Part shown: positions 1,828-5,302 of the stretch, one piece after another
Layout: every line of letters begins with the position of its first letter
Numbering within the stretch: position 1 is the stretch's first letter
Virus record (IMG/VR): IMGVR_UViG_2703718800_000011
Reading direction: 5' to 3' (one strand)
Source: a virus
Taxonomy: Duplodnaviria > Heunggongvirae > Uroviricota > Caudoviricetes
DNA length: 6,095 nucleotides
Translations under genes and position numbers: made by a program
The notes under the pieces: model-generated
The model's input: the letters and a program-made list of their open reading frames with translations, nothing else
Database searches by the model: none
Told to the model about the DNA's origin: nothing

Positions 1828-2328
1828 TCAGACTTTCGGCAAATCGTAGCGACATAACCATTCATCCGCCGAACGGCGGGCCTCAAGACCGGGGAGTTTC
1901 ACCCCCTTCGAATAAATCCAGCGGATGTACTGCTTACAGGACGCGGGCATCTGCCCGGCATTGATCAGGCGCAGAAGCGTGGAGTTGCGGAAGTTCGTTT
2001 CACCAGCCCAGAAGATCCACGAAGCCAGCGCCACCGTCTGACCACGGGTAAGCGGCACCTGAACACGCCGATCAATGGCCGCAAAGGCCCATTTCATGTC
2101 CTTTTCCAGTAGTTCCAGGCATTCTTCATCCGTCAGGGTCATACCCGGTTTCACATCCGGGCCGGTATGGCCGTAACAGATGGTTGGTGTACCGGTGGGA
2201 TCGATATACGTGGAGTTTTCTTTCCCTTCCCAGTAACCGGTGTAATGCGTGGTAATGGTGAACGTCCCGGCACCGGCCATAACAAGGGCAATCAGCTTTT
2301 TACGCAGTGGTGCGGGGAGTTTTGGCAT
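1828..2328 (-). CDS. SAR (signal-anchor-release) endolysin, phage lysozyme family (GH24, T4/P21-type)
   Basis: 166 aa. Weakly hydrophobic Gly/Ala-rich N-terminus LIALVMAGAGTFTITT typical of SAR domains. E...D...T catalytic arrangement in WEGKENSTYIDPTGTPTICYGHTG, then the GETNFRNSTLLRLINAG and GLEARR motifs that I recall from P21 R-type lysozymes. Confidence 0.85.
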   Translation of the reverse strand: MPKLPAPLRKKLIALVMAGAGTFTITTHYTGYWEGKENSTYIDPTGTPTICYGHTGPDVKPGMTLTDEECLELLEKDMKWAFAAIDRRVQVPLTRGQTVALASWIFWAGETNFRNSTLLRLINAGQMPASCKQYIRWIYSKGVKLPGLEARRSADEWLCRYDLPKV

Positions 2329-2330
2329 TG

Positions 2331-2366
2331 TTACGCTGTCTCATGATGTTCTCTGAGTCAGCGTAA
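2331..2366. promoter_or_regulatory. 36 bp imperfect palindrome abutting the endolysin start codon
   Basis: Plus strand TTACGCTG-t-CTCA-tgatgttctc-TGAG-t-CAGCGTAA: 12 complementary bp in two blocks around a 10 nt centre. It lies in the 71 bp gap between the Mor/C-like stop (2400) and the endolysin ATG (2328). Could be an operator for a dimeric regulator or an mRNA hairpin covering the endolysin ribosome-binding region. Confidence 0.3.
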
Positions 2367-2399
2367 CGGTGAAGGAAAGGCGGCAGGCTTTGCGGAATA

Positions 2400-2822
2400 T
2401 CAGAAAAGTGGCGGTTGCGTTCTTGCCAGATGCAGACGGCGCTGTTCGCGTATGACGGTATAAATCTGGGTTTCTGACATCCTGTAATGGCGGCGCAGGG
2501 TTTCAATTTTTTCGCCCTGGCTCCAGCGGGAAAAAATCTCATTATTGCGCAGTTCGGTGAAAAGGGATTCACCGACCGGGAGATAATAACCACGCCCGCC
2601 CATGTACCCGGCCTGTGCGGCCGCAACTTTACGGGCAAGCATTCCTGCCTGAGCAGGTTCAATCCCCTGACGGTGCAGTTCAGCACTGATCACATCAACC
2701 AGGTCCCGCAGCGTGCCGGGCCAGTTCTTTTTCAGCTCATCATCAGGAATGTCATCCAGACGGTCAATCAGCGCGTGCAGCTGTTCGCTGTCACCAAACA
2801 TGCTCATCTGTGTTTCAGCCAT
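2400..2822 (-). CDS. Mor/C-family transcriptional activator (Mu middle/late activator homolog)
   Basis: 140 aa. N-terminal acidic region with MFGDSEQLHALIDRLDD; C-terminal GGRGYYLPVGESLFTELRNNEIFSRWSQGEKIETLRRHYRMSETQIYTVIREQRRLHLARTQPPLF matches my recollection of the Mor family (GG..YIP, RN..I...F.G, HTH, and the Mu Mor C-terminus ...RRMRRLKYRQYQPSLL). GGAGG SD 5 nt upstream of ATG 2822; located immediately upstream of the endolysin. Confidence 0.75.
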   Translation of the reverse strand: MAETQMSMFGDSEQLHALIDRLDDIPDDELKKNWPGTLRDLVDVISAELHRQGIEPAQAGMLARKVAAAQAGYMGGRGYYLPVGESLFTELRNNEIFSRWSQGEKIETLRRHYRMSETQIYTVIREQRRLHLARTQPPLF

Positions 2823-2854
2823 ACCCGCCTCCGGTCATCATTACACAGGGCAAG

Positions 2855-2888
2855 TTTAAAATAAAAATCCCGCGCTGTGGCGGGATTT
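2855..2888 (-). terminator. Intrinsic terminator hairpin, copy 1 (strong for minus-strand transcripts)
   Basis: AAATCCCGC-gctgtg-GCGGGATTT at 2865..2888: perfect 9 bp stem, 6 nt loop. On the minus-strand RNA the stem is followed by UUUUUAUUUU. Sits 43 nt upstream of the Mor/C-like ATG. Confidence 0.6.
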
Positions 2889-2930
2889 AGAGGCGCTGTA
2901 AATCATAACCCGAAATGAGCTGTGTATTTA

Positions 2931-2959
2931 TTGATCATTTTCCGGTGTAACTATATGAT
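2931..2959 (+). promoter_or_regulatory. Candidate sigma70-type promoter for the plus-strand cargo gene
   Basis: TTGATC (2931..2936), 17 nt spacer, TATGAT (2954..2959) on the plus strand in an AT-rich tract, about 200 nt upstream of ATG 3163. Pattern match only. Confidence 0.3.
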
Positions 2960-3162
2960 AAAGATCGTTTTTATTTTTAAAAATACAAACCCTGAAGGAG
3001 TTTTTCTTATCAAAAAGCTTGTGCATATTGCGGGTTATTGTTGTTTCATCAACATGAAAACCAATTATCCCAACTCTTAAAGCACACCAGGCTTGCTCCA
3101 GTGCAAAAACAAATAATTTCAGTCTGCCTGACAGCGTTCCACCGGAATAAAGGAAGATATCC

Positions 3163-3585
3163 ATGAAACAACCTCCATCTTTGCTTTTATCGTGCCCACC
3201 AGAACTGGCCCATGAACTCAATGATCTGGCGAAAGAGTATAAACTTACAAATCATAATATAGAAGCAGCAACACTTAGTGCTGCCGGAAGCGATATTGTA
3301 TTGATCGTTCTGGCCGCAGCTTCATGCGATGGGTTCTGGCAGGCATTAGCCAGTATGTTTCAGACGTGGTTACATCGTAAACCAACAAAACAAACACCCC
3401 CGGAAAAGAAAGTTATTCGTAGCGTCATTGTTCGTAGCTGGGAACACTATCAGGAGACAACTAAACAAACTGAATTTTATAACTTTGATGCTGATGAGCT
3501 GGCTAAATTGATAGCGTTATATGAAAAACCAGATGAAACAATTGGTTGCATAATCCCGTCAGAAACGGAAATTCAGGAAAAATAA
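3163..3585 (+). CDS. Hypothetical protein encoded by an opposite-strand, AT-rich moron cassette; one predicted hydrophobic helix; family not recognised
   Basis: 140 aa. The only convincing plus-strand ORF in the window. ATG 3163 is preceded by AAGGAAG with a 6 nt spacer. Stop TAA (3583..3585) runs directly into terminator copy 2. Composition is visibly more AT-rich than the flanking phage genes. Hydrophobic segment SDIVLIVLAAASCDGFWQALASMF; C-terminal half charged and acidic. Confidence 0.6.
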   Translation: MKQPPSLLLSCPPELAHELNDLAKEYKLTNHNIEAATLSAAGSDIVLIVLAAASCDGFWQALASMFQTWLHRKPTKQTPPEKKVIRSVIVRSWEHYQETTKQTEFYNFDADELAKLIALYEKPDETIGCIIPSETEIQEK

Positions 3586-3608
3586 AATCCCGCACTGTGG
3601 CGGGATTT
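3575..3608 (-). terminator. Intrinsic terminator hairpin, copy 2 (terminates the minus-strand early operon after the GemA-like gene; also follows the plus-strand cargo gene)
   Basis: AAATCCCGC-actgtg-GCGGGATTT at 3585..3608: 9 bp stem, 6 nt loop. On the minus-strand RNA it is followed by UUUUAUUUUU. Begins 4 nt after the GemA-like stop (3612). Near-identical to copy 1 over about 31 bp. Confidence 0.65.
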
Positions 3609-3611
3609 GGG

Positions 3612-4121
3612 TTAACAGGGGAATGATTTTTCATACAGCCTGCAAACGCGCTCATAACTCATCACTGCACGCTCCGACATATCCAGGGCTGCCAGCATTT
3701 TGCGGCGGTGCCAGCGTTTGAGACGCTCCAGCACATCAGAGGCCAGCTCGGGGTGTTGCTCCAGCCACTGCCAGTTAGCCACACCTTCGCCGCCGTTCTG
3801 CGCGGCCGTCTGCGATTGCACCCAGCGGTTAAGGGCCGTTTCCGCACCATCAGAAATAAAGCCCTGCCGGTGCATCACTTTCCAGATGGCGCGAATTTTG
3901 GCGGTCACCGTACCCGGCTTTAAGGCCCGGTTAACCGGTTTCTGACGCACTTTAAAACCGCGTTTTTTGAAAACATCCAGTACGCGGGATAACTCATCCG
4001 GTGACATATCCCGGCAACTGGCTTTACCGGTGGCTGCCAGCAGTGCGGATGTATAGGTTTCATCATCCAGAGCAAGCTCGCGTTTTGCCACATGAATGGC
4101 AGATATCAGTTTTCCTCTCAT
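3612..4121 (-). CDS. GemA-like protein (Mu gp16 family, DUF1018-type)
   Basis: 169 aa. N-terminus MRGKLISAIHVAKRELALDDETYTSALLAATGKASCRDMSPDELSRVLDVFKKRGF fits my recollection of the gp16/GemA signature (LI..IH.AK..L.LDD..YR.LL...TGK.S..DM...EL..VL). Start overlaps the upstream stop as ATGA. Confidence 0.7.
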   Translation of the reverse strand: MRGKLISAIHVAKRELALDDETYTSALLAATGKASCRDMSPDELSRVLDVFKKRGFKVRQKPVNRALKPGTVTAKIRAIWKVMHRQGFISDGAETALNRWVQSQTAAQNGGEGVANWQWLEQHPELASDVLERLKRWHRRKMLAALDMSERAVMSYERVCRLYEKSFPC

Positions 4122-4429
4122 ACCGTATTTACCTTTTTACGGACATGGAAAGCCTTTTCTGGCTCATTCCACCGGATATGATGCGTTGGCGGAATAATCA
4201 TTATGTGCCAGCCATCTCTGGTTGTTATTCGGCAGAAAAACTCACCGCTGTATAACACAATGGCCTGCTGAATAAGCGCATCCGCAGCCAGCTCAAGCAG
4301 ATATCTTTTATCAAAAAGGCTGATAATTTTCCGGCATAACCACCGGGTGATAACAAATGCGCCGAAAAACGATGTGATATATAAACACCAGAACAGCAGA
4401 GAAATATTGTCCGTTATTTGCTCATCCAT
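4118..4429 (-). CDS. Small membrane protein, unknown function
   Basis: 103 aa with one clear transmembrane segment ISLLFWCLYITSFFGAFVITRWLC. GGGAGA SD 6 nt upstream of ATG 4429. Sequence looks more AT-rich than its neighbours. Translationally coupled at both ends. Confidence 0.55.
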   Translation of the reverse strand: MDEQITDNISLLFWCLYITSFFGAFVITRWLCRKIISLFDKRYLLELAADALIQQAIVLYSGEFFCRITTRDGWHIMIIPPTHHIRWNEPEKAFHVRKKVNTV

Positions 4430-4754
4430 TGTGTATCTCCCGTAATTCCGGTAAAGCCGAAATATGGCACCAGTGCGTCACCTGTCCATCCTCATCTTCA
4501 AGGCAGGCTCCGGTTTCTTCATCAACAAAAAAACCTTCATACCCGATATGGCCGATGCGCAGCTCCTGTCGGTGACCGTACTGAACAATCAGTACAACAG
4601 CCTCCATATCAGGCGGGAAAGCATCATTCAGTGAATGCCAGGGATAACCGCGCAAATCCCCGAAATAAACCCCGGTCAGGGTTCCGCCACAGACCGGCAT
4701 CCCGGCGGCACATACCAGAGGTTCGTCTGATTCAACAAATAAGGTCGTTATCAT
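4422..4754 (-). CDS. Hypothetical acidic protein, unknown function
   Basis: 110 aa (MITTLFVESDEPLVCAAGMPVCGG...FVDEETGACLEDEDGQVTHWCH...). GGGAG SD 8 nt upstream of ATG 4754. ATGA overlap with the upstream gene and 8 nt overlap with the downstream one. Confidence 0.5.
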   Translation of the reverse strand: MITTLFVESDEPLVCAAGMPVCGGTLTGVYFGDLRGYPWHSLNDAFPPDMEAVVLIVQYGHRQELRIGHIGYEGFFVDEETGACLEDEDGQVTHWCHISALPELREIHNG

Positions 4755-5302
4755 GGCGTTAACTCCCGTAATACAGCGTCCCCGGCAGTCCGGCGATGGT
4801 GATAAATAAAATTCACCGTACTCTCGGATAATTCAAATTTCTCGCCTATTTCCCGGAAGGTAAGACGTCGTGGTGATTCAGCATCCCGTAATTCACGAAT
4901 AAGATGAACATCATCGTCAGGTATACGGGTGAAGGGCAGCAATTCTCCGTATTTTTTCATGCTTACGCCAATATATCGCGCCCGATTGTGGACAGAATCC
5001 CGGTCTCGCCCCAGATATTCTCCTATTTGCTTACCGGTCATCGTTCTGGCATTTTTTCGGATAAATTTATCTTCATCATGTTTAAATCTTGGACGTTTGC
5101 ATTTGAGCAACTCCGGGTAAGTACCGCGTAATAAAACAATCCGGTTATGTACACCCCAGAAACTTCTTTTTACCCTGACAGCAATATCCTTAACCGGGGT
5201 GGATGAATAAAGCGCAATCAGCAGCGCATCTTCTTCAGGTGTCCACGGACGGACATGAGCGGGGGCGCGACCTTTTCGCCCCATGGGTTGTAAAATCATC
5301 AT
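4751..5302 (-). CDS. Putative DNA-binding protein with repeated helix-turn-helix-like segments
   Basis: 183 aa. AGGGGGTGA SD upstream of ATG 5302. Contains WTPEEDALLIALY (SANT/Myb-like signature) plus two further HTH-like stretches, MTGKQIGEYLGRDRDSVHNRARYIGV and LTFREIGEKFELSESTVNFIYHHRR. Family not recognised. Confidence 0.55.
   Translation of the reverse strand: MMILQPMGRKGRAPAHVRPWTPEEDALLIALYSSTPVKDIAVRVKRSFWGVHNRIVLLRGTYPELLKCKRPRFKHDEDKFIRKNARTMTGKQIGEYLGRDRDSVHNRARYIGVSMKKYGELLPFTRIPDDDVHLIRELRDAESPRRLTFREIGEKFELSESTVNFIYHHRRTAGDAVLRELTP

Follow-up and report, generated by a model that had tools for sequence, protein, structure and literature searches.

The 'moron' is reportedly a concept that Juhala and Hendrix developed for lambdoid phages, and a review of it, 'The moron comes of age', is cited in PMC4378225. 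How phages acquire morons and exchange them among each other is an old open question. In Pseudomonas Mu-like phages, accessory regions share no common flanking sequence, and the mechanism of their acquisition has been called mysterious (PMC4378225). For phage Mu, a Mor-binding dyad has been published at -51 to -36 of Pm (PMC4287176), and C binds a 16-bp dyad centred at -43.5 (PMC2582627). The locus described here has affinities with both systems. Judged by its position between phage neighbours, its foreign base composition and its promoter-like site, the extra DNA is a moron, which appears in the unusual frame of a duplicated early terminator.

We analysed a stretch of 6,095 nucleotides (hereafter the window), which matches a section of a Mu-like prophage in E. 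coli STEC2018-607 (NZ_CP075697) with 100% identity; this prophage adjoins the cellulose-synthesis (bcs) locus, which is disrupted. The phage genes of the window are all encoded on the minus strand. The last gene before the terminator is gemA (3612-4121, minus strand; Pfam GemA, E = 1.3e-29; RefSeq 'gp16 family protein'), while the first gene after the slot encodes a 140-aa activator of the Mor/C family (2400-2822, minus strand; WP_001536795; Pfam Mor, E = 1e-30), followed by a lysozyme gene (1828-2328, minus strand). The activator, which is closest to the Mu late activator C (40% identity over 97% of the length), was the sole Mor-family gene annotated within the prophage stretch examined. Similar to the early terminator/Pm region of Mu, a GC-rich hairpin followed by a T-run is found at the end of the early operon, ahead of the operon encoding the C-like protein. 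However, the hairpin sequence differs (that of Mu being AAAGCCGG/CCGGCTTT), gemA and C of Mu are separated by mor and three small open reading frames (ORFs), and the Mu hairpin is not duplicated. The distance from gemA to the Mor-family gene is 789 bp in the window, compared to 69-77 bp in three relatives (L002, L003 and L004) and in most viral contigs.

Two 31-bp direct repeats, read directly from the sequence, account for both ends of the additional DNA: the mor-side copy at 2858-2888 (AAAATAAAAATCCCGCGCTGTGGCGGGATTT) and the gemA-side copy at 3578-3608 (AAAAATAAAATCCCGCACTGTGGCGGGATTT), both oriented on the minus strand, spaced 720 bp apart and identical at 28 of 31 positions without gaps (repeat search, family D2). 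They differ in one loop base (G at 2874, A at 3594) and in the A-tract, where the T is shifted (A4-T-A5 versus A5-T-A4) such that one A fewer separates it from the stem. Each 24-nt core consists of a 9-bp stem with five G-C pairs and a 6-nt loop; allowing up to 3 mismatches, the core was found twice in the window and not at all in 200 of 200 dinucleotide-preserving shuffles. In the mor-side copy, the hairpin spans 2865-2888 and the T-tail 2864-2858, 42 nt upstream of the ATG of the Mor/C-family gene, while in the gemA-side copy the hairpin spans 3585-3608 and the T-tail 3584-3578, 3 nt past the gemA stop codon (3612-3614). Both copies were called as minus-strand terminators by the terminator scan (tails TTATTTTAAA and TATTTTTCCT), with U-rich tracts 3' of the stem on that strand (TTTTTATTTT on the mor side, TTTTATTTTT on the gemA side), and the 56-nt minus-strand RNAs were predicted to fold at -16.2 and -13.2 kcal/mol (z = -2.8 and -3.0). 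The plus strand offers no more than TTT after either stem, which does not make a U-rich tract, so that as predicted terminators both hairpins are essentially one-directional. The first-pass annotation had described two near-identical repeats of about 31 bp at these positions that differ by one loop base and one A of the A-tract; direct reading, repeat search and shuffles bear this out, and the minus-strand terminator hairpin with a 9-bp stem and 6-nt loop that it had proposed is likewise predicted by the terminator scan and the RNA folds. Over 41.9 kb of prophage and flank, the element is present in two copies and no more. A search of Rfam over 2700-3750 returned nothing above threshold, and hairpin-like dyads in the rest of the prophage, counted with 3 mismatches allowed, were uninformative (41 seen, 27 expected).

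Relatives without the insert (L002, L003, L004 and about 25 viral contigs) carry exactly one hairpin, which is separated by 3 nt from the preceding gemA stop codon and by about 42 nt from the following ATG of the activator gene, and the single copy of L003 and L004 is identical to the mor-side copy of the window. One copy per empty site was found in two flank haplotypes and also in a second, diverged lineage (L197 and L200). The copies bound the extra DNA as precisely as the first-pass annotation had stated, with the cargo lying exactly between the two, and its expectation of just one hairpin between the stop of gemA and the start of the Mor/C gene in relatives lacking the insert was confirmed in L002-L004 and the viral contigs. 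In E. coli, the insert was present in only 4 of the 232 records holding the region; this census of empty and filled sites combines 40 sampled rows of the 232 records with separate searches for cargos A and B, and other occupants of the slot may have been missed. A further variable region is located upstream of gemA and displays no duplicated terminator, which indicates that the pattern is specific to the gemA|mor boundary.

The DNA between the two copies of the window (cassette A; 2889-3577, plus strand) is a 689-bp AT-rich insert that is absent from L002-L004 and from most viral contigs, and its G+C content of 33-44% compares with 53-62% in the flanks. It contains a promoter-like block (2931-2966, plus strand) consisting of TTGATC-17 nt-TATGAT (2931-2959) followed by AAAGATC, with two GATC sites and 9 of 12 matches to the sigma-70 consensus in the promoter scan, and a single cargo ORF (3163-3585, plus strand) for a 140-aa orphan protein with one hydrophobic segment at residues 35-53 (hydropathy). 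The end of this ORF is embedded in the gemA-side copy: its stop codon sits in the A-tract, and its last codons and stop overlap the T-tail on the opposite strand. No family was found for the cargo A protein in Pfam, PADLOC or PHROG, searches of 5.8 billion proteins and 1.84 billion cluster representatives returned near-identical relatives only, and an AlphaFold2 single-sequence model was of low confidence (pLDDT 51). A eukaryotic SEA-repeat protein that appeared as a relative was discarded as a spurious summed HMMER score, the other matches being fragments of A itself. A minus-strand ORF annotated by RefSeq at 2928-3164 is probably spurious, as it has no family and no counterpart in cassette B (see below). 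Cassette A is 100% identical in 4 complete E. coli genomes, at one place in each; the exact protein occurs in 1046 blocks of an assembly index, and among the contigs listed every one encoding it has it at the gemA|mor site, with no other site seen.

Cassette A shares with morons its single ORF, its promoter-like site, an adjoining hairpin, a location between genes that are adjacent in related phages and a distinct base composition, and its orientation and position could allow expression from a repressed prophage. As for a terminator of the moron's own, the hairpin downstream of the cargo ORF has TTT only on the cargo strand. Unlike in morons, the flanking terminator appears to be the phage's own early terminator, which is found as a direct repeat on both sides; at least four different ORFs are housed in this one frame across two lineages, and an empty site consists of exactly one copy.

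These ORFs (A, B/B', C and D) are unrelated to each other and occupy the slot across two Mu-like lineages. In all cassettes, the ORF is antisense to the phage genes and always located between two copies of the element, and all five (A, B, B', C and D) are directed away from the activator gene. As read from these alignments, the gemA|mor boundary is a recurrent cargo slot, a result that goes beyond the first-pass annotation. One example is L041, whose gemA is 98.8% identical to that of the window and whose gemA-side loop variant (ACTGTG) is the same as that of the window's gemA-side copy, and which carries an unrelated 113-aa ORF (cassette B), likewise antisense and between two hairpins; cassette B was also found in E. 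coli M1 and M3. Cassettes A and B cannot be aligned save for a promoter block of about 60 bp (TTGATCA-N16-TATGATAAAGATC), the AG that follows the mor-side copy and the junction with the stop codon in the A-tract. The block common to A, B and B' reads TTGATC-N17-(T/C)ATGATAA(A/T)GATC; matches to this pattern in species-representative genomes were chance hits in unrelated taxa, and no GemA relatives were found in those genomes. A resemblance between proteins A and B was not significant (E = 0.03), and no family was found for cargos B and C in Pfam, PADLOC or PHROGs.

The second lineage (L193-L201) has a GemA protein about 62-64% identical to that of the window, is about 35% diverged and was not found in complete E. 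coli genomes. Downstream of gemA, the identical 24-nt hairpin is present. Among its nine loci, L197 and L200 are empty and have one copy, and the other seven are filled with cargo C (106 aa), cargo D (GTG start, about 143 aa) or cargo B', which shares 55% protein identity with B; C and D each have a signal peptide. In this lineage the gemA-side copy is intact, and the mor-side copy is partly decayed, its cargo-side arm being lost or changed. Cassettes B and B' are homologous over their whole length including the promoter block, with DNA identities of 60% in the ORF and 65% in the 5' region, compared to 66% in gemA and 68% in the activator gene. By this measure, cassette B is diverged about as much as the flanking phage genes, so that the two-copy duplication would be old, and it probably predates cargo A. 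The best reading of cargo A is that it took the place of an earlier B-type cassette within a frame that already existed. The four orphan proteins, each probably expressed from its own promoter, are candidates for lysogenic conversion or superinfection exclusion; the predicted hydrophobic segment in A and the predicted signal peptides in C and D fit the usual envelope-associated products of morons.

The history of exchange at the slot can be followed in the copies themselves. Compared to the window, L012 shows 3 substitutions across the entire cargo (2889-3577), whereas the adjacent flanks are only 72-85% identical. On the mor side, dense mismatches end at 2851, with the loop base at 2875 as a further difference; on the gemA side, they begin again at 3583/3594. 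The two copies of L012 differ by one loop base, and its gemA-side copy is the same as the mor-side copy of the window in all 31 nt. Since the divergence switches at both hairpin copies, the crossovers that moved the cassette or replaced the flanks appear to have occurred in the copies or immediately beside them. The mor-side loop variant tracks the mor-flank haplotype at empty and filled sites alike, the gemA-side variant tracks the gemA-flank haplotype, and cargo A occurs next to three gemA-flank haplotypes that each carry a different loop variant; in these comparisons, the loop variant of each copy travels with the phage flank and not with the cargo. The copies are also the only long identical stretch between backgrounds with diverged flanks. 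Because direct repeats permit a precise loss down to one copy, the empty site may be ancestral or derived, and the single-copy sites may in part represent deletions between the repeats.

Overall, we favour the interpretation, to which we assign a probability of roughly two in three, that the early terminator of an Sp18/Mu-like prophage is duplicated around a moron cargo slot. The 31-bp element would be the intrinsic terminator that closes the early operon after gemA and before the single Mor/C-family gene, and the slot would hold one self-promoted, AT-rich gene in opposite orientation between the gemA-side and the mor-side copy. A copy on each side would insulate both neighbours: the early transcript would still end after gemA despite the insert, and minus-strand transcription arising from the AT-rich insert would stop before the late-activator gene, untimely expression of which would switch on the lysis genes. 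Being the only DNA conserved across backgrounds, the copies could in addition provide short arms of homology for the exchange of cassettes among co-resident Mu-like genomes, for their loss by looping out to one copy, or for their re-acquisition. The duplication itself would be old, inherited by cargo A when it replaced a B-type cassette rather than made by its arrival. Three considerations speak against this interpretation. RecA-dependent exchange usually needs at least as much homology as the 13-31 bp available here, if not more; lytic growth might suffer from two consecutive terminators ahead of the activator gene; and the sharp edges of identity at a noncoding gap could also stem from the mosaic exchange of entire flanking modules, with the gene boundary simply as its end point. 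The clean empty, filled and alternatively filled states of the site make moron gain, loss and exchange experimentally tractable.

A recent insertion of cargo A into a single terminator, with a 31-bp target duplication as its product or with A bringing its own copy, would also account for part of these observations. As with target-site duplications of insertion sequences, extra DNA lies within a direct repeat of which one copy is present at the empty site and two are present at filled sites, exactly around the cargo, and the single loop-base difference between the copies of L012, together with the identity of its gemA-side copy to the mor-side copy of the window, agrees with such an event. However, the same two-copy frame also surrounds the unrelated cassette B in a near-identical background, the homologous cassette B' and cassettes C and D in the lineage that is about 35% diverged; moreover, A has the promoter block and junction of B, and the loop variants go with the flanks. 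A true insertion at this very position looks different: in L035, the IS4-family element inserted in the loop of the same hairpin encodes a 445-aa transposase, has inverted repeats at its ends and has duplicated 11 bp of its target, whereas no terminal inverted repeats were found at 2889/3577, the only ORF of cassette A has no transposase-like family, and its repeat of 31 bp appears to comprise the whole terminator. Cassette A is not a transposon, and a recent insertion as the source of the duplication is unlikely. From the first-pass annotation, which had the cargo arrive by recombination within or next to the terminator, the position of the crossovers is retained, supported by the breakpoints of L012; its proposal that the arrival of A created the duplication, or that A carried its own copy, is not supported as it stands, given the frame around B and B' and the loops that track the flanks. 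A likeness by chance of two generic terminators, or a dispersed REP/MITE-like host repeat, can practically be dismissed. The bare stem (loop-degenerate AAATCCCGC(C)...(G)GCGGGATTT) is a generic terminator solution in many unrelated organisms and matched at least 120 metagenome contigs, and the single metagenome scan was swamped by such terminators with the same stem (relevant matches: L084, L126 and L167). But none of the 200 shuffles yielded two matches, the stretch of 41.9 kb holds only the two copies, and the 31-mer occurs in just 252 of 5426 E. coli genomes, at a median of one place each and tracking the prophage. The search for further copies in host genomes that the first-pass annotation had called for thus shows that the 31-mer belongs to the prophage type and is not a dispersed host repeat, and the shuffles and the genome count together rule this explanation out.

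A different origin of the cassettes would be a site-specific system, in which the 9-6-9 palindrome is a recombinase core and circles with one site integrate at the phage site, through a tyrosine recombinase or a hairpin-specific enzyme as for dif/pdif modules and integron attC sites. Two 9-bp inverted arms around a 6-bp spacer have the layout of such a core, which is a match of form only; the boundaries are internal to the element, different cassette types of the second lineage come with different cargo-side arms of the mor-side copy, and the sequence is invariant without covariation while several unrelated cassettes are held in one orientation. Integron cassettes and dif/pdif modules are similar also in that they are promoter-proximal or single-gene units with short imperfect palindromes, with alternative cassettes at one site. 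On the other hand, except for the Mu-type transposase, no recombinase is annotated in the prophage stretch examined, and a dedicated one was not seen there; the cassettes were never seen in arrays or at another site. To our knowledge, the arms are also unlike the XerCD consensus. In the second lineage, the mor-side copies have decayed to lack one arm and so are not maintained as sites, and the bias in orientation is equally explained by selection against read-through. We regard a site-specific system as very improbable, and retain the duplicated early terminator around a cargo slot as the preferred explanation.

The palindrome may have an additional role as a dyad-symmetric site for the Mor/C-family activator at the activator's own promoter, a possibility that complements the duplicated terminator and that we advance tentatively, with a probability of roughly one in three. 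A copy would then be needed on the mor side for expression and on the gemA side for termination, such that only two-copy arrangements survive; binding of the activator to the element would explain why a copy stays with each neighbour. Across about 45 loci in two lineages with flanks 66-72% identical, the stems are invariant and show no compensatory changes, and this invariance without covariation suggests more than a purely structural signal, for which it would be unexpected. The arm AATCCCGC recurs in Mu Plys (10418) and, with one mismatch, in the Mu PI region, both regions containing AATCCCG(C/T). In the prophage, AATCCCGC is also present in the PI-equivalent gap upstream of the protease-gene equivalent, and the close variant ATTCCGC is found upstream of the lysozyme gene; in both cases AAA(A/G)CC comes next, and a TAnnCT hexamer lies 26 nt past CCGC. 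These matches are short, however, and AATCCCGC is found in coding DNA too.

The spacing to the putative promoter elements can be read in either direction. In the mor-gp18 gap of Mu, the only dyad is the terminator-like hairpin at 9176-9196, and adding 43.5 nt to its centre gives a start 18 nt before gp18, which matches the published geometry of the Mor dyad (PMC4287176) and is counted in favour of an activator site, although the equation of the Mu early terminator with the Pm dyad is our own deduction from coordinates. Similar to Mu Pm, the window allele has a candidate -10 hexamer at the equivalent spacing (TGTAAT, 2840-2845, minus strand), with which the mor-side dyad (centre at 2876.5) would come to lie at -43.5, the spacing used by Mor and C at their promoters. 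In the L002-type allele, by contrast, a -10-like hexamer is missing at this distance, and those of the second lineage are weak. Counted from an alternative hexamer that all alleles conserve (TAAACT/TATAGT), the dyad would lie at about -30, where its effect would be repression. If the palindrome does bind the activator, it would be a compact case of one sequence for termination, activation and recombination. An extension of this idea, in which the palindrome is at once early terminator, activator site and dedicated site for protein-mediated cassette exchange, strikes us as a long shot; if it were true, enterobacterial Mu-like phages would carry an integron-like single slot for lysogen-expressed genes. 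The half-site itself, a short motif of modest weight, is common to the regions upstream of the lysozyme and protease genes of the prophage.

Two sharply different alleles were found for the activator gene's leader and 5' half, with only 72-84% identity between window positions 2501-2860 and the corresponding sequences of L002, an empty-site relative, and L012, which holds cargo A on diverged flanks, whereas the 3' end of the gene was 98% identical in the same comparisons. On one side, this mosaic block ends exactly at the hairpin. The hairpin between gemA and the activator gene was also the site of a transposon insertion in another relative (L035), where an IS4-family element encoding a 445-aa transposase (L035:4520-5975) is inserted in the loop with an 11-bp target duplication (GCCACAGCGCG), splitting the terminator between the two genes. 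A second variable region was located directly upstream of gemA (window 4100-4800; counterparts L004:4107-4420 in an empty-site relative and gp15 of Mu, NC_000929 7896-8162), where identity to relatives falls to 50-60% and where both L004 and Mu have a small ORF in reversed orientation; no duplicated terminator was found at this region.

Within the cassettes, the promoter block of cassette A (window 2931-2966, plus strand) has equivalents in cassette B (L041) and in its second-lineage homologue B' (L196), and two GATC (Dam) sites are kept in all three, the first within the -35-like hexamer (TTGATC) and the second directly 3' of the -10-like hexamer (AAGATC or ATGATC). The retention of this pair suggests that cassette expression may be sensitive to methylation or replication. 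The 78-aa minus-strand ORF annotated by RefSeq in cassette A's 5' leader (window 2928-3164) is probably not a gene, because it matched no family and cassette B lacks a counterpart. The cargo A ORF was uncalled or interrupted in some assemblies, with the match split into overlapping segments (L187:838-1260; L126:1586-2009), which suggests that the cargo occasionally decays.

The gaps upstream of the lysozyme gene (window 2329-2399, minus strand) and of the head-protease gene (L001:12131-12305, minus strand, on the longer prophage stretch) share the motif (A/T)AT(C/T)CCGCAAA(A/G)CC, and in both a TAnnCT hexamer follows the CCGC at a distance of 26 nt; they are candidate activator-dependent late promoters of the window prophage. 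The second lineage has a related motif upstream of its lys gene. On the same prophage stretch, RefSeq annotates a 'tRNA-OTHER' (L001:12818-12905) between the virion-morphogenesis and head-morphogenesis genes, on the plus strand, opposite to that of the phage genes.
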